The position numbers were made by a program, and so were the translations under genes. Shown here in pieces: positions 5,677 to 34,515 of a stretch of 64,000 nt of DNA; the stretch's first letter is position 1; each line of letters opens with the position of its first letter. The notes beneath the pieces are model-generated. The model was not told the origin of the DNA, did no database searches, and worked only from the letters and a program-made list of their open reading frames with translations. This DNA is from an uncultured Gammaproteobacteria bacterium (lineage in GTDB: Bacteria; Patescibacteriota; Microgenomatia; Daviesbacterales; UBA10151): positions 6,348-70,347 of the forward strand of contig CAZCNP010000005.1 of the NCBI GenBank assembly GCA_964500725.1, read 5' to 3'.

Positions 5677-6648
5677 TTAACGTCTTACAAGCAGTACGGC
5701 GTTTGGAATACCCCTTCCTGGCCCGGCCTTATACCCCTCATACCAGAGGGCTGTTGAGCCTCCTTGATCTAAATTTAAGGCTGAATCCATACCTAAAGCT
5801 TTTAATACCTTGGCTGAATCACCCATTGAAGCGCTGTAGACTATGCCAATATAGACCATATTACCTTTGCTGGCTATAAAGGTTCTGGCTGCTTTTCCAC
5901 CGAATTTGGGCTCATTGGGGGCCTCTGTGAAGCTAATATTGCTTCCTGCAACAAGTAGAGGATAATTGGCTATCACACTATCCACACCTGTATCTCTGCC
6001 CCACTCCAAAGACCTTCCGACAAATCTTGAGGATCCTGCTGAAAATATAGCTGCTGGAACTGTGGAGTAAACATTATTATCAGAATTAAAGTAGTGTTTA
6101 TTCTTATTCATAAGGAGTGAATCAAAAGAATTGGTTTTTCCAGCGCAGCTTGAATAATCTGCAGGACAAAAGTATGAACCATTAATTCCAGCAAAAGCTC
6201 CATTTCGGGCAACATAATCTCCTAAAGACAAAACTGGGCAATTGTTGCCACAGTCTGATTCTGAAGCAGTATCTATAATAACTTTGGTAGAGTTTAAATC
6301 TGCAGCAATTATAGCAACAGTGTAGTTTTGCCCATCAACATTGACTGTTTGGCGGGAGTACCCGGCTCCAGGGGGAACATTATTTACTACTACTGGTTGA
6401 GGTGTGGGGGTAGGAATTGGAGTTGGTGCCAGTGTAGCTACAGGTTCTGGTGAAGATGTAGGTACAGGAGTGGGTGTTGGAGTAGGAGTTGGTTTAAAAT
6501 TGGGTAGTGCAGCCAGATTTGCCAGGTTTTTTTGAGAAGAATTAATAGAGTTGCTGGAAATTATTTTGAGAGCTACTGCAGAGGATATTACAGCCAGTAT
6601 AGATATCAAGATTACTGGCGCTAGGCCTTTTTGGTTAAGAATTTTCAT
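5677..6648 (-). CDS. secreted protein with Pro/Thr-rich linker and C-terminal globular domain (unknown function)
   Basis: N-terminal signal/anchor, PTPTPTPTPVPTSSPEPVATLAPTPIPTPTPQP linker, 323 aa. Confidence 0.4.
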   Translation of the reverse strand: MKILNQKGLAPVILISILAVISSAVALKIISSNSINSSQKNLANLAALPNFKPTPTPTPTPVPTSSPEPVATLAPTPIPTPTPQPVVVNNVPPGAGYSRQTVNVDGQNYTVAIIAADLNSTKVIIDTASESDCGNNCPVLSLGDYVARNGAFAGINGSYFCPADYSSCAGKTNSFDSLLMNKNKHYFNSDNNVYSTVPAAIFSAGSSRFVGRSLEWGRDTGVDSVIANYPLLVAGSNISFTEAPNEPKFGGKAARTFIASKGNMVYIGIVYSASMGDSAKVLKALGMDSALNLDQGGSTALWYEGYKAGPGRGIPNAVLLVRR

Positions 6649-30031: not shown

Positions 30032-30664
30032 ATGCTCTACCCAAATCTAAAATTCCCTAAAAAAGCAGGCAGACCATTTTTTTATACTAATTTTGTTGCT
30101 ACCCTTGATGGAAAAATTCAAGTCTTAGAACACCAAAAGGATTACTGGCCAATAGGTTCAAAAGTTGATCATGATACTTTAATGGAACTTAGAGCCTATG
30201 CAGATTGCCTTATTCATGGCAGCCACACAGCAAAAGAGGCAGCTAGAGCTACCCTAGAAAGCCTTAGCAGCCCCTCTTTTAAAGCATTAAGGAAAAAGCT
30301 GGGTAAAGATCCAGTATTGCCATATTATGTAGTAACCAATCATCCTGAAAATTTCTCTAATTTAGCTTCTAAAATTACTACTGTGCCACACAATTTAACT
30401 CTTTTATCAAAGAATTTATATAAAAAGGGGGTTAGGAATGTACTTATGGAGGGTGGTCCCACCCTTTTAGGATCTTTTCTGAAAGCCAATTTAATAGATG
30501 AGGTATTTTTAACCATTGCTCCTAAAATCTTTGGCAGCCAAAAGACAGCAACCTTAACCTTAGTTGAAGGGACCCTTTTTCCTCCTCAAAGTATCAAAAA
30601 ACTTAAACTTCTTTCAGTAAAGCCAATTAATAATGAGATTTTCCTAAGGTATAAAGTAATTTAA
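30032..30664 (+). CDS. RibD C-terminal domain / dihydrofolate reductase-like reductase
   Basis: FVATLDGKI and NVLMEGGPTLLGSFLKANLIDEVFLTIAPKIFG match PF01872-type reductase domain. Confidence 0.65.
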   Translation: MLYPNLKFPKKAGRPFFYTNFVATLDGKIQVLEHQKDYWPIGSKVDHDTLMELRAYADCLIHGSHTAKEAARATLESLSSPSFKALRKKLGKDPVLPYYVVTNHPENFSNLASKITTVPHNLTLLSKNLYKKGVRNVLMEGGPTLLGSFLKANLIDEVFLTIAPKIFGSQKTATLTLVEGTLFPPQSIKKLKLLSVKPINNEIFLRYKVI

Positions 30665-30921
30665 CGATCTTCTCTTGGTCTTGCAATGTTGACTACGATC
30701 TTACGACCTTCAACCTCTGAACCATTTAAGTTTTTGACTGCGTTTTGAGCCTCTTCATCAGAAGACATCTCAACGAAACCAAATCCTCTAGATCTACCTG
30801 TTTCTCTGTCTTTAATAACTTGCGCAGATGCAACAGTACCAGCTTGAGCAAAAAGTTGCGCAAGGCCAGCATCGTCAATAGACCAAGGTAAAGAACCTAC
30901 AAATAATTTTCTATTATTCAA
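30661..30921 (-). CDS. RRM-domain RNA-binding protein
   Basis: RNP-2 KLFVGSL and RNP-1 RGFGFVEM motifs; 86 aa. Confidence 0.8.
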   Translation of the reverse strand: MNNRKLFVGSLPWSIDDAGLAQLFAQAGTVASAQVIKDRETGRSRGFGFVEMSSDEEAQNAVKNLNGSEVEGRKIVVNIARPREDR

Positions 30922-31044
30922 AAAAATTCACCTCTCTTTCTTTTTAAGATTTGTGGAGGTGAATTACTGTAAAAACACAAAATACACTCTACTCACACCT
31001 AAATTGTCCCATATTTGTAAGCAAATAGCAAGTAGCTTGGAAAA

Positions 31045-31839
31045 TTAAAGTTTACCGAAGGCACCAGATTCAATTGCGTCCCTGACATCTAATTCAGTAA
31101 TCTTACGAATTAACCTTTCGTCAAAGACATTTATAACCATCTTCTGTAATACAGTCACTGATTCACCAATCAGTTCAAGTCCTCTAGCAAATCCACCTTC
31201 AATCCGAGCATTTCTGGCCCAAGCAATATCCTTTAGCATTGCTCCAGCTCCTCTGTCTTTCAAACGATCAAGCACACCGAAACCAAAAACTGATTCTATA
31301 TCTGCCCGAACTTCGGTGTCTGTTCGATTATCATCCACATCTGCAAAATCTTTAATCGCCCTTGCTGCAATTTCTTGGGCAACTCCTAAAACAGATTCAG
31401 CAGGCTTTAAGTCACCAATTAATATATCTTCACCAGCATTCTCTCCTTGAGGTAACGATAATCTCTGTGTTGACACATTCTTTTTAGAACTTATTACTGA
31501 AGCTGTTGACAATCTAACTCCATTCCGCTTATATCTTTTTCTCAACTCTGCCACTTGGGAAGGAACAATGTTTGCTATTCTAAGAGGTGTATATTTTGCG
31601 CTTTGAGTTATTGCAGTTGCTGCTCCCTCACTTAATTGAATAAAACGCGGATCATCCTGCATTTGTTCAGGAGTAAAATCTTCAGTTAACACATTCCATA
31701 TATACGAGGTCCTAAATCCAGGCTTGCCCCCCAATAGACACGATCGAACTATACCAACTTCAGCAACGAGCCCTTGATATTGAGCCACAGCGGTATAATA
31801 TTGCTCCTTTGCCGGATTTATTTCTGCTGTACTAGACAT
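31045..31839 (-). CDS. hypothetical protein co-regulated with the adjacent Fic gene. Start moved to the Met 12 nt downstream of TATAAT; 264 aa, no His residues.
   Basis: Own sigma70-like promoter (TTGCAA-16-TATAAT) read on minus strand, overlapped by triple ATCRCGCAA repeats. No recognisable domain. Composition richer in GC than flanks. Confidence 0.4.
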   Translation of the reverse strand: MSSTAEINPAKEQYYTAVAQYQGLVAEVGIVRSCLLGGKPGFRTSYIWNVLTEDFTPEQMQDDPRFIQLSEGAATAITQSAKYTPLRIANIVPSQVAELRKRYKRNGVRLSTASVISSKKNVSTQRLSLPQGENAGEDILIGDLKPAESVLGVAQEIAARAIKDFADVDDNRTDTEVRADIESVFGFGVLDRLKDRGAGAMLKDIAWARNARIEGGFARGLELIGESVTVLQKMVINVFDERLIRKITELDVRDAIESGAFGKL

Positions 31840-31888
31840 ATTATTAGCCTGATTATACACGATCAATTATCATTTGCAAGCACTATTG

Positions 31889-31921
31889 AATCGCGCAAAG
31901 ATCGCGCAAGCAATCACGCAA
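31889..31921 (-). promoter_or_regulatory. operator-like triple direct repeat (aATCGCGCAA / gATCGCGCAA / aATCACGCAA; spacing 11 then 12) overlapping promoter of the 264-aa gene
   Basis: Seen directly; same repeat architecture at 33018..33049. Confidence 0.4.
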
Positions 31922-31932
31922 CCGGACAACGC

Positions 31933-32991
31933 CTATTTTGCTAAGCTATAGAAAGAACTTGGGCCCTTACCATCTAATTTAATCAGTTTTTTATCTGATA
32001 AGTTTTTAAGCTTTAGTTGTGCAGTCCTTTTTGCAACTCCCAGCACATCTACCACATCTTCAGAAGTAATTCTGCCAGTGGTGGTTAAAAAATCCATAAT
32101 TTGAATTTCATCTCGATCTAAAAAGATCTGCTCCGATTTTTTGCTGGCTTTACCAAAACCTATTGATTGAACTTGTTCTAAAGCTTTTCTGGCCTCAACC
32201 AAAAATCCAGTGGTAAAGTATTCCAGCCAGGTAGTAAAATCCATATCCTTTTGGTAATTTTTGCCTTGAGCTCTGTTTTCTGCATTATAGTAAGACATTC
32301 TATCCCTATTGTAATAATCTTCCAAAACCAAAATCTTTCTAAAATCCCAATTATCCCTGTAAAGCTGAAGCTGAGTTAAAAGCCTCGCCACCCTGCCATT
32401 TCCATCTGTAAAAGGATGGATGGTTACAAACTGCAAATGTAGTATACCTGCCTTAATAATAGGATGTATACTTTCTTTTTGGGAACCTTTGAGCCAAGCT
32501 AACAAATCTTCAATTAGTTTCTTAACTTGAGGAGCAGGAGGAGCCTTAAACCTCAGCATCTCTCTGCCATCACCCAAATCATCCAAAACATACACATCAG
32601 CAGGCCTAAACTTTCCCACCTTTTGGTCTTCAACCAAACCTTTAACTACTGCTTTGTGCAAACTTAATACCTCATCTATAGTAATATCTCCTTTTTTCTT
32701 GCTTAACTCATCTAACAGCTTTAAAGCATTATAGTAATTTTCTACCTCTAAAATATCTTTTTGAGGAGCCCTGACTGCTTTGCCTTCTAAAACTTTCCCT
32801 ACTTCAAATTGGGCTAATTTGTTTCCCTCAATAGAGGTAGAAGTATGAGCCATCCTCAAAATTGCCTGCCTTCTTAGTTGAGCTTCATTCAAAGGCAAAA
32901 CTCTTGATCTTTCTATTGCAGCTTTAATTTCTGCAATCTCAGCAATTCTGGATAAAATAGTGGAGGTAATACTATATTGAGGTTGAAGCAT
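31933..32991 (-). CDS. fic: Fic family protein (class II: N-terminal inhibitory STSIEGN motif; canonical HPFTDGNGRVARLL active site; C-terminal winged-helix-like tail)
   Basis: HPFTDGNGR Fic motif; (S/T)xxxE(G/N) motif near residue 50; 352 aa. Confidence 0.85.
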   Translation of the reverse strand: MLQPQYSITSTILSRIAEIAEIKAAIERSRVLPLNEAQLRRQAILRMAHTSTSIEGNKLAQFEVGKVLEGKAVRAPQKDILEVENYYNALKLLDELSKKKGDITIDEVLSLHKAVVKGLVEDQKVGKFRPADVYVLDDLGDGREMLRFKAPPAPQVKKLIEDLLAWLKGSQKESIHPIIKAGILHLQFVTIHPFTDGNGRVARLLTQLQLYRDNWDFRKILVLEDYYNRDRMSYYNAENRAQGKNYQKDMDFTTWLEYFTTGFLVEARKALEQVQSIGFGKASKKSEQIFLDRDEIQIMDFLTTTGRITSEDVVDVLGVAKRTAQLKLKNLSDKKLIKLDGKGPSSFYSLAK

Positions 32992-33017
32992 ATTTATATA
33001 TTATAGTATACCACAAA

Positions 33018-33049
33018 ATCACGCAATAATCGCGTAATAAATCACGCAA
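33018..33049 (-). promoter_or_regulatory. operator-like triple direct repeat (ATCACGCAA / ATCGCGTAA / ATCACGCAA; spacing 11 then 12) overlapping -35 region of the Fic promoter. A -10 TATACT/TATAAT lies about 13 nt before the Fic ATG.
   Basis: Seen directly in the divergent intergenic region 32992..33093. Confidence 0.4.
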
Positions 33050-33093
33050 TCGGCCGAATGACAGTTTTTGACAAGGGCAAACGATGATACAAT

Positions 33094-34515
33094 TTGGTAA
33101 TGTGGATTAAATTACTGCTTCTATTTTTTGTTTTTTCCTTTCTTTTTAAAGCAGACCATTCTTTTGATCAGGATTTAGGAAGACACTTAAAACTGGGAGA
33201 GATTATTTGGCAGACAAAATCTGTCCCAAAGGCTAATCTTTTTTCTTATACCAACCCAGATTTTCCTTTTATAAATACACATTGGCTATTTGAGGTCTGG
33301 GTTTACTTAACAAGCCAAAGTATAGGGCTTCAAAGCTTACTAGTTATTAAAATCCTTATTTTTTTGCTTTCTATTTGGATTATTTTAAAAATTATTCCTA
33401 AAGAAAAAAGTCTACTTCTGCTTCCCATTGGATATATTTTCTTTCATGTTTTAAGAGAAAGAACAGAATTCAGGCCAGAAATTTTCAGCTTTCTTTTTAC
33501 AGCCAGCACTTACTACATATTAGAAAGATTTTTAAGAGGGCCAACAAAATTAATTTATCTACTACCAGCAATTCAGCTAATTTGGATAAATACCCACATC
33601 TACTTTTTTGTAGGTTTAATATTACAAGCTATATTTCTGCTTCATCTTCTATATCATCATCTACGTTCCCACATCGGAAGTGGGAAGGTAAAGATATTAG
33701 GGATTATCTTTGTATTATCGGTTGCAGCAAGTTTGATTAATCCTAATGGGCTGGCAGGTTTTCTTTATCCTTTAAATGTAACTAAAAACTATGGTTATAC
33801 TATTGTAGAAAATCAAACCATTTTTCTTTTGGAGAGTATTGGTTTTATTGATCCTAATATTATCTATGCCAAAATAACAATAGGTTTGACTGCTTTAATT
33901 CTTCTCTTTGCTGCATACAAAAGAGTCTTTGAAATTAAAAATATCTTGATTGCTGGTTTTGGTGTTGCCTTGGCTTTAATAAATGTCAGAGGCCTGCCAT
34001 ACCTGGTATTTTTATCTTTACCTGCAGCACTGCTTAGTATCCCAGCATCTATAGCAAAAAAGGGCTTCTTTATAATTCTTACTACTCTAACAATAATTCT
34101 TTTGATTTTTGAAAGTTTTTCTTATTTAAAAAGTAAGCCTCAACTTAAGTTTGTAGAAAATGTTAAGGCAGCTATGGATTTTGTGATAAGCAATAAGCTA
34201 TCCGGACCAATCTATAATAATTTTGATATAGGCAGTTATATTATTTACAAAGGTTACCCCAACTACCAAGTATTTGTAGATGGCAGACCAGAAGCTTACC
34301 CTACAAAATTCCTTACTGAAGAATATATTCCTTCTCAAGCAGACTATTCCAAGTTTAAGGAGTTAGATAAAAAATATAGCTTTAAAACCATCATTTTCTC
34401 CCGAACAGACCAAACTCCCTGGGGCAGAAACTTTTTAAACTCTGTGACACGGGATAATACTTGGAAAACAGTTTATCTTGATAACTTTATGATAGTTTTA
34501 GTTAAAGTAATTTAA
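33094..34515 (+). CDS. large polytopic membrane protein (unknown; possibly glycosyltransferase-like membrane enzyme)
   Basis: 473 aa with more than 10 predicted hydrophobic helices and one larger soluble loop near the C-terminus. Confidence 0.4.
   Translation: MVMWIKLLLLFFVFSFLFKADHSFDQDLGRHLKLGEIIWQTKSVPKANLFSYTNPDFPFINTHWLFEVWVYLTSQSIGLQSLLVIKILIFLLSIWIILKIIPKEKSLLLLPIGYIFFHVLRERTEFRPEIFSFLFTASTYYILERFLRGPTKLIYLLPAIQLIWINTHIYFFVGLILQAIFLLHLLYHHLRSHIGSGKVKILGIIFVLSVAASLINPNGLAGFLYPLNVTKNYGYTIVENQTIFLLESIGFIDPNIIYAKITIGLTALILLFAAYKRVFEIKNILIAGFGVALALINVRGLPYLVFLSLPAALLSIPASIAKKGFFIILTTLTIILLIFESFSYLKSKPQLKFVENVKAAMDFVISNKLSGPIYNNFDIGSYIIYKGYPNYQVFVDGRPEAYPTKFLTEEYIPSQADYSKFKELDKKYSFKTIIFSRTDQTPWGRNFLNSVTRDNTWKTVYLDNFMIVLVKVI

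Follow-up and report, generated by a model that had tools for sequence, protein, structure and literature searches.

The present analysis concerns a 64,000-nucleotide stretch of DNA (the window; positions 6,348 to 70,347 of contig CAZCNP010000005.1, assembly GCA_964500725.1) from an uncultured bacterium of the Daviesbacterales lineage, and in particular a minus-strand gene that encodes a Fic protein of 352 aa (31933..32991). This gene is bracketed by two arrays of three short direct repeats, one in its promoter region and the other just past its stop codon. Comparison with related loci makes it fairly probable that the Fic protein binds these arrays through a domain of the winged helix-turn-helix (wHTH) type at its own C-terminus and thus regulates its own gene. 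The next gene downstream, which codes for a 264-aa protein (31045..31839, minus strand) and which an initial annotation of this DNA had regarded as the partner of Fic, is a lineage-specific insertion, or cargo, and not a conserved Fic partner.

An exact search for the repeat ATCRCGYAA returned six matches in the 64 kb (at 31890, 31901, 31913 and 33018, 33029, 33041), against 0.30 expected by chance, and none of 100 shuffled sequences reached six. No further copy was found in the 64-kb window beyond the two arrays. The two triple arrays with 11/12-bp phasing had been described in the initial annotation, which only misplaced one start by a single base (31889 instead of 31890). In the sense of the fic gene, the repeat unit (iteron) reads TTRCGYGAT, and in both arrays the unit starts lie 12 and then 11 bp apart (11/12 on the plus strand). 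Array 1 (33018..33049, minus strand; in gene sense, TTGCGTGAT-N3-TTACGCGAT-N2-TTGCGTGAT) occupies the -35 region of the Fic promoter, while array 2 (31890..31921, minus strand; in gene sense, TTGCGTGAT-N3-TTGCGCGAT-N2-TTGCGCGAT) starts 11 nt after the Fic stop codon. Reading of the sequence revealed an extended -10 element of Fic (33000..33013, minus strand), in which TGG TATACT overlaps TATAAT, and the ATG follows 8 nt after TATAAT. A -35 hexamer for Fic was found neither by promoter scan nor by reading of the sequence, which leaves the extended -10 alone; the fic mRNA is probably leaderless. For the 264-aa gene, the promoter scan identified a promoter-like site TTGCAA-16-TATAAT (31852..31879, minus strand; 10/12 positions match), whose -10 is followed by the ATG after 12 nt; array 2 does not overlap this site but stops 10 nt upstream of the -35. 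Thus, the earlier claim that each gene has a sigma70-like promoter of its own applies to the 264-aa gene and, with regard to the -10 only, to Fic, and the claim that an array overlies each promoter is right for array 1 but not for array 2. A terminator-like prediction at 33038-33018 probably merely reflects partial self-complementarity of adjacent iterons, and a search of Rfam with 30500-33300 gave no match. Iterons of plasmids or other replicons were also considered as an identity for the repeats and rejected, as such iterons are ~17-22 bp long and lie beside rep genes or origins, whereas the repeats described here are 9 bp long with 11/12-bp spacing, and the locus is chromosomal and syntenic; no Rep-like protein was found among the flanking genes examined.

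Bioinformatics analysis revealed that the 352-aa open reading frame (ORF) is a member of the Fic/Fido family, scoring 76 bits with Pfam Fic (PF02661; cut-off, 24; E-value, 4.2e-21) and carrying the catalytic motif HPFTDGNGR (pattern HPFx[D/E]GN[G/K]R; residues 192-200, 32392..32418, minus strand), as located by motif search and orthologue alignment. The inhibitory-helix motif STSIEGN (residues 51-57, 32821..32841, minus strand) has the form [S/T]xxxE[G/N] and is found on the same chain, N-terminal to the Fic core, which makes the protein a class II Fic; this column is invariant in 19 orthologues and 90-99% conserved across the broad family. The ORF and both motifs are in agreement with the initial annotation. 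The SoFic model of PADLOC matched residues 17-348 (3.5e-55), and the protein has the wHTH-Fic architecture, that is, an N-terminal helix, a Fic domain and, at the C-terminus, a winged HTH; Fic_N was below its cut-off (21.7 vs 26.7). The NCBIfam SoFic equivalog NF046030 gave 58.5 bits, far from its cut-off of 550. In the AlphaFold 2 (AF2) model (pLDDT 70), helices at residues 293-305, 310-317 and 321-333 are followed by strands at 337-340 and 347-350. The wHTH domain accordingly spans residues 293-350 (31942..32115, minus strand), with the recognition helix at 321-333 (31993-32031) and the wing at 341-346 (31954-31971). Matches of wHTH families to residues 293-350 are weak, but PDB chains 8uqu and 8cil, the latter probably being CbFic2, align with the Fic protein through the C-terminal domain. 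PDB entry 7xux, which we take (unchecked) to be CccR, showed low similarity (E-value, 2.4e-10). The window Fic shares the architecture of SoFic, CccR and CbFic2 and is an orthologue of none of them.

The iterons of related loci are of type A (TTGCGYGAT), type B (TTGCGC(A/T)(A/T)G; loci L029, L033, L035, L036 and L039) or type C (TTTCGCGAT; loci L034, L038, L040 and L041). Among the 352 columns of the Fic alignment, type B is perfectly separated only by columns 339, 343 and 344, where the wing changes from GKGPS to GSTT(A/S), and type C only by columns 172, 320 and 323, the last two of which change AKRTAQ to TKRAAQ at the start of the recognition helix. Five of the six discriminating columns are thus located in the recognition helix or the wing. 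Over residues 1-285, the type B proteins do not form one cluster: after each other, those of L029 and L039 are closest to type A proteins. The iteron type predicted from the protein alone was confirmed in both arrays for P0084 (wing GSTTS, 85% identity to the window Fic; type B) and P0098 (TKRSAQ; type C), and P0105 (GKRSAQ, GKGPA), unflagged as B or C, lies on a contig with type A iterons. Because of this covariation and these prospective predictions, the wHTH of Fic very probably reads the arrays; the same evidence supports the suggestion of the initial annotation that they serve a dedicated autoregulator, possibly the C-terminal wHTH of Fic itself. As a more tentative reading, recognition might follow a simple evolvable code, in which residue 320/323 would read iteron position 3 and wing residues 343-345 would read positions 7-9.

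A genome scan with Fic yielded 40 species, mostly Candidatus Daviesbacteria, at 55-89% identity. The neighbourhood runs from TerC through a divergently transcribed 473-aa membrane protein, Fic and an RRM protein to a 222-aa membrane protein, which in some genomes is preceded by a RibD-like protein. Any given flanking gene occurs in 24-33 of the 40 species, with the exception of the RibD-like one (14/40). In the syntenic loci, Fic is 72-89% identical to the window protein, compared to 54-65% for the membrane neighbour and 73-93% for the RRM protein; in Candidatus Daviesbacteria, the fic gene is both syntenic and strongly conserved, more strongly than most of the flanking genes. The locus had initially been viewed as a horizontally acquired cassette, GC-richer than its flanks in the regions of both genes. 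For Fic, this view does not agree with its synteny (24-33 of 40 species) and with a GC content (0.366) at the window mean (0.365). The 264-aa gene is modestly richer (0.404, in the top 6% of 800-nt windows), and horizontal acquisition may fit this gene alone.

The arrays were surveyed on both strands of 41 Daviesbacteria loci (328.6 kb). In total, 77 triples with 12/11 spacing were found, of which 37 are located just upstream of Fic in sense, 30 at the stop codon in sense, three upstream in antisense, and seven elsewhere, including three (L022, L037 and L046) just past a cargo gene inserted 3' of Fic. Such a triple occurs within 130 nt upstream of Fic in 35 of the 41 loci. In 30 loci, an array-2 triple is found in the interval that runs from 14 nt ahead of the Fic stop codon to ~130 nt past it, and for most loci the start of array 2 falls in the range from 11 nt ahead of this codon to ~50 nt past it. 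About half of the loci have 6-8 nt between the end of array 1 and the -10 (TGnTATAAT). In most loci, this -10 ends 6-9 nt before the Fic ATG, which implies a leaderless fic transcript. Array 2 ends 8-13 nt before a -35-like hexamer in 20 of the 28 loci with a callable hexamer, and in most Daviesbacteria it precedes the gene for the RRM RNA-binding protein. Within a genome, arrays 1 and 2 show 3.71 mismatches over 27 iteron positions, compared to 6.00 between genomes, and in 20000 permutations no value this low was obtained. The orientation is opposite to Fic in L012 and L050 (array 1) and in L053, L088 and L129 (array 2), with the position beside the -10 or the stop codon being kept. In L017, L018, L030 and L033, GC-rich palindromic inserts of ~30 nt (e.g., ccagcctcgcgtagacgcgagtctaggcgggt) are found between array 1 and the -10, and in L013 such an insert follows array 2. 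These inserts resemble small elements of the miniature inverted-repeat transposable element (MITE) or repetitive extragenic palindrome (REP) kind, and array 1 is displaced by them to 37-38 nt from the -10.

A metagenome scan with the repeat pair TTGCGYGATTATTGCGYGAT matched at least 120 stretches. Among the 120 matches listed, 64 have the pair in sense with a Fic homologue, at 7-125 nt upstream of it, five have it just downstream of one, and six have it nearby in antisense; many of the remaining 45 are contig ends or decayed Fic genes. The same matches include 50 full-length Fic homologues, 28-74% identical to the window Fic (median 43%), on contigs with a GC content of 0.29-0.57, and most of these homologues have a triple array 11-54 nt upstream of the ATG. 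In these homologues, KRTAQ (residues 321-325) is 80-99% conserved, which is comparable to the catalytic motif, and together with the GKGP wing it is among the best-conserved residues. The initial annotation had proposed an array search in related genomes and metagenomes as a check; the repeats proved to be linked to Fic homologues, and the view that the arrays are a dedicated operator and not a common genome-wide promoter element is supported. A scan of viral contigs gave three matches, none with Fic. A tblastn search of plasmids yielded only homologues with less than 38% identity, so that it supplied no cultured model for the close family.

Arrays of this kind were also observed in other settings. 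Tandem 11-bp repeats TTG[C/G]GTGATTA (3-5 copies) are present in stretches with a GC content of 0.45-0.56 and no Fic gene (L060, L063, L074, L076, L078, L087, L093, L103, L106, L108, L137 and L166), in two of which, L106 and L108, they stand directly upstream of a ybeY-like gene; either a Fic encoded farther away or another protein may bind them. Further arrays precede uvrA (L046, L130) or a gene for a minimal nucleotidyltransferase (MNT; L105, L149), or lie on both sides of a 209-aa gene (L022), and these arrays before genes other than Fic or RRM may indicate that the regulon is wider or that arrays are associated with the capture of genes. Intact arrays accompany internally deleted Fic remnants, reduced to the first ~13 and/or the last ~15 codons, in L082, L091, L117 and L126, and L066 shows a fusion of an HsdS-like ORF to the first 12 Fic-like codons. 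The remnants and the varied contexts suggest that outside Daviesbacteria the Fic family behaves as a decaying accessory gene.

In the mechanism proposed here, Fic, as a protein of the wHTH-Fic type, would act both as an enzyme and as a transcription factor. Its flexibly tethered wHTH domains would bind head-to-tail on the three 9-bp direct repeats (TTGCGYGAT), which, being 12 and 11 bp apart, would all be presented on one helix face. Array 1 would replace the -35 of the leaderless extended -10 promoter, and its occupancy would most likely repress fic (negative autoregulation), a direction of the effect that we hold with somewhat better than even confidence. Array 2 may couple the next promoter, that of the RRM gene in most Daviesbacteria and that of the inserted 264-aa gene here, to the occupancy by Fic, may form a loop with array 1, or both. 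Occupancy of the operator could, in addition, feed back on the enzyme activity of Fic, as the precedent of CbFic2 allows. By analogy with other Fic enzymes, EF-Tu, FtsZ and GyrB may be considered as candidate AMPylation targets. The winged-helix domains of PhoB/OmpR bind head-to-tail to ~11-bp direct repeats, which replace the -35 and are situated ~10 bp upstream of the -10. The pho box may serve as a mechanistic analogy, with no homology implied; the window Fic has no receiver domain, and its DNA-binding domain is fused to a Fic enzyme.

Several points weigh against binding and autoregulation by Fic. The evidence for binding by this Fic family is indirect, and covariation across related genomes can partly reflect shared ancestry. 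A symmetric Fic dimer on three direct repeats is geometrically awkward and needs a flexible linker; residues 277-288 have low pLDDT in the AF2 model. Array 1 is inverted in L012 and L050, still abutting the -10. Array 2 is largely confined to the Daviesbacteria-like clade, and it is located upstream of, and not on, the downstream core promoter, so that its effect could be activation, repression or none. Finally, some contigs carry these 11-bp repeats with no Fic close by, e.g., beside ybeY (GC 0.48-0.52).

The 264-aa protein has, as initially stated, no recognizable domain and no His residues: Pfam, NCBIfam, PADLOC and PDB sequences gave no match, and PHROGs gave a marginal one (E-value, 0.005). 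A profile search of 1.84 billion representatives retrieved 47 relatives in all, including stand-alone N-domain proteins with no Pfam match. The N-terminal domain has a weakly MNT-like fold; assignment of the protein as a minimal nucleotidyltransferase (MNT/Pol-beta, with an hG[GS] loop and DxD on strand 2) was rejected, since DxD is absent. When the Fic-RRM spacer was aligned with eight relatives, a run of ~806-850 nt was unique to the window. It immediately follows the final iteron of array 2 and stops ~13 nt short of the RRM -35; compared with sister genomes, the insertion extends approximately over 31032..31889 (minus strand). The ancestral downstream unit (30661..31031, minus strand), delimited by synteny and a conserved leader, comprises the promoter TTGCTA (31031-31026)-N17-GACAAT (31008-31003), the leader and the 86-aa RRM gene (30661-30921), and in the window the RRM promoter is otherwise intact beside the insertion. 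The four homologues of the 264-aa protein with a readable context are found directly after an rve integrase (P0002, 76% identical), after an ABC transporter (P0004), between RF-1 and a Y1 transposase (P0009), and beside an 883-aa PHP/AAA protein and a serine recombinase (P0008). The last of these (L001-L004) is a 387-aa protein whose 120-aa C-terminal extension contains Cys pairs and is possibly a zinc ribbon; it is divergently paired with the 883-aa PHP/AAA_21/SMC_N protein near the large serine recombinase, and may sit on a mobile or defence-type island.

The initial annotation had read the two genes as a co-regulated module, and one may ask whether Fic and the 264-aa protein form a functional toxin or defence system, in which the latter acts as an antitoxin, modulator or co-effector under the shared operator. 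Both genes are indeed preceded by the same array type with the same phasing, array 2 ending 10 nt from the -35 of the 264-aa gene, and the arrangement recurs in further assemblies with an identical protein (L007 shows both genes, the other contigs being too short). MNT nucleotidyltransferases, which the N-terminal domain weakly resembles, are antitoxins of HEPN toxins, and a 47-aa protein downstream of the Escherichia coli SoFic acts as an antitoxin (PMC12249575). Nevertheless, a homologue of the 264-aa protein was found in none of the 40 related Fic loci, Fic was found in none of the four independent readable contexts of its homologues, and the iteron motif was absent from the loci of these homologues. 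The initial annotation had named a lack of co-occurrence in other genomes as grounds for refuting its module, and on these grounds a conserved pair is not supported. The ~850-bp insertion with the 264-aa gene splits array 2 from the RRM promoter, and in other genomes the same slot holds cargo genes that are unrelated to it and to each other, in either orientation. Fic needs no antitoxin, because its inhibitory helix is present in cis; as initially recognized, this is not a FicTA pair of class I, in which a small adjacent antitoxin supplies the helix in trans, and the 264-aa protein has no SxxxE[G/N] motif. No 47-aa AS1-like ORF follows the window Fic. In 33 of 40 related species, Fic is followed by the RRM gene, which begins 94-318 nt past the Fic match in ~22-25 of them; these 94-318 nt are taken up by array 2, the RRM promoter and the leader, with no room for a conserved small ORF. 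Taken together, a module of Fic and the 264-aa protein is very improbable.

It is also quite improbable that the arrays are bound by another regulator, encoded elsewhere, and that their correlation with the wHTH of Fic reflects common descent only. Such a regulator would fit the arrays before uvrA (L046, L130) and the MNT gene (L105, L149), sometimes with no Fic in the stretch, and binding by Fic is, after all, deduced from sequence comparison. However, the discriminating residues are concentrated in the recognition helix and the wing instead of being scattered, type B wings are found in proteins most closely related to type A ones, and the linkage of array and Fic persists down to ~30-40% identity and at very different GC contents, which is hard to reconcile with an unlinked regulator. 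A third explanation, that the arrays are mainly recombination or insertion sites which capture cargo beside Fic, and are operators secondarily or not at all, is unlikely, though it accounts for a number of observations: the Fic-RRM spacer is a hotspot, with 0.7-2 kb of unrelated cargo in ~10 of 40 species; arrays flank the cargo in L022 and are found beyond it in L037 and L046; the orientation is flipped in L012, L050, L053, L088 and L129; and Fic remnants (L082, L091, L117, L126) and the HsdS-like fusion (L066) stand behind arrays. Yet no conserved recombinase is found nearby, the insertion in the window has no flanking array duplication, and about half of the loci have the end of the array 6-8 nt upstream of the -10, as expected of a promoter element. 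The covariation with the DNA-binding domain likewise points to recognition by a protein. Binding by the wHTH of Fic itself is the preferred reading.

Other features of the locus include a divergent promoter (33068..33102, plus strand; TTGACA and the extended -10 TGA-TACAAT, read from the sequence) of the syntenic 473-aa membrane protein gene, which has its ATG at 33100 and is probably leaderless. This promoter starts 19 nt from array 1, and the synteny of the gene extends to 27 of 40 species; occupancy of array 1 by Fic might also affect it. The RRM gene has a conserved promoter, a conserved leader block, GTGAGTAGAGTGTATTTAGTG, and a leader hairpin (30965-30926) whose 3' arm is the Shine-Dalgarno (SD) sequence GGAGGTGA (window 30926-31031 and the matching region of L012-L051). 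The hairpin is near-invariant in 18 species, with almost no covariation and no Rfam match; it resembles a structure that masks the SD sequence and may act as a thermosensor or as a site of autoregulation. A LAGLIDADG-like ORF (WYVVGYI(A/V)(T/A)DG(Y/S)LSIDxRHINITSKD) adjoins the RRM gene in L038 (~1.6 kb after Fic) and L048.

Autoregulation by wHTH-Fic proteins is already known from CccR and SoFic. CccR of Yersinia pseudotuberculosis represses its own promoter through its HTH (PMC9755527), and it resembles the window Fic in being a class II Fic with an in-cis inhibitory motif and a C-terminal HTH, with enzyme and regulator in one polypeptide (PMC9755527). Its HTH binds its own promoter near the -35/-10 region (PMC9755527), and array 1 lies in the -35 region here. 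The operator of CccR consists of two 10-bp inverted repeats (AGATAATCAT-N26-ATGATAATCT), whereas three 9-bp direct repeats with 12/11 spacing and a second, 3' array are found here, and CccR is an effector of the type VI secretion system, whereas the window Fic is encoded by a syntenic chromosomal gene of a bacterium of the candidate phyla radiation (CPR). SoFic of Shewanella oneidensis, which binds DNA of its own promoter (the first 100 bp; bioRxiv 10.64898/2026.07.09.737422) and targets EF-Tu (bioRxiv 10.64898/2026.07.09.737422; PMC12249575), has the same N-terminal helix, Fic domain and wHTH, as reflected by the full-length match to its PADLOC model (3.5e-55); the window Fic is non-orthologous (58.5 bits vs the equivalog cut-off of 550). 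No operator sequence of SoFic is defined in the literature consulted, whereas the putative operator of the window Fic is defined at the sequence level. Furthermore, SoFic is a single-gene anti-phage system, of a kind that is typically accessory and found in defence islands. The context of the window Fic is housekeeping and syntenic (TerC, membrane proteins, RRM, RibD-like) and not a defence island, while its broader family does show accessory behaviour. In CbFic2 of Coxiella burnetii, also a wHTH-Fic protein, DNA binding by the HTH shifts an AMPylating monomer to a deAMPylating dimer (PMC10628234); the protein bound random DNA with high affinity, with no specific site known (PMC10628234), and its recognition helix differs (KTSRTTAYRELHDL vs AKRTAQLKLKNL in the window Fic).

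According to InterPro, ~1,800 proteins have the wHTH-Fic architecture (SoFic preprint, bioRxiv 10.64898/2026.07.09.737422). Such enzymes are widespread, and in the literature consulted only CccR has a defined operator. In the literature searched, several features appear to be new, namely the operator built from three direct 9-bp repeats, the fact that a large and divergent Fic clade has conserved it, the additional array at the 3' end of fic, the covariation of wHTH and iterons that points to specificity determinants, and the occurrence in a CPR lineage of a Fic gene that is syntenic and strongly conserved. A sequence-defined operator common to homologues of 43% median identity, together with candidate specificity residues, provides designs for binding and specificity-swap experiments. 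The results also guard against the annotation of a neighbouring orphan gene as a partner or antitoxin of Fic. More tentatively, Fic may be a core enzyme-transcription factor in Daviesbacteria, and possibly in a much wider wHTH-Fic clade, with arrays that bracket fic and control a downstream slot occupied by the RRM gene and sometimes by captured cargo; if so, the cellular AMPylation state would be coupled to transcription. A shared operator would let Fic regulons be predicted from genomes alone and, if the recognition code is true, the regulon would be readable from sequence in uncultured bacteria. In CPR bacteria, which are uncultivable, such an operator would also afford a rare look at a dedicated transcriptional circuit.

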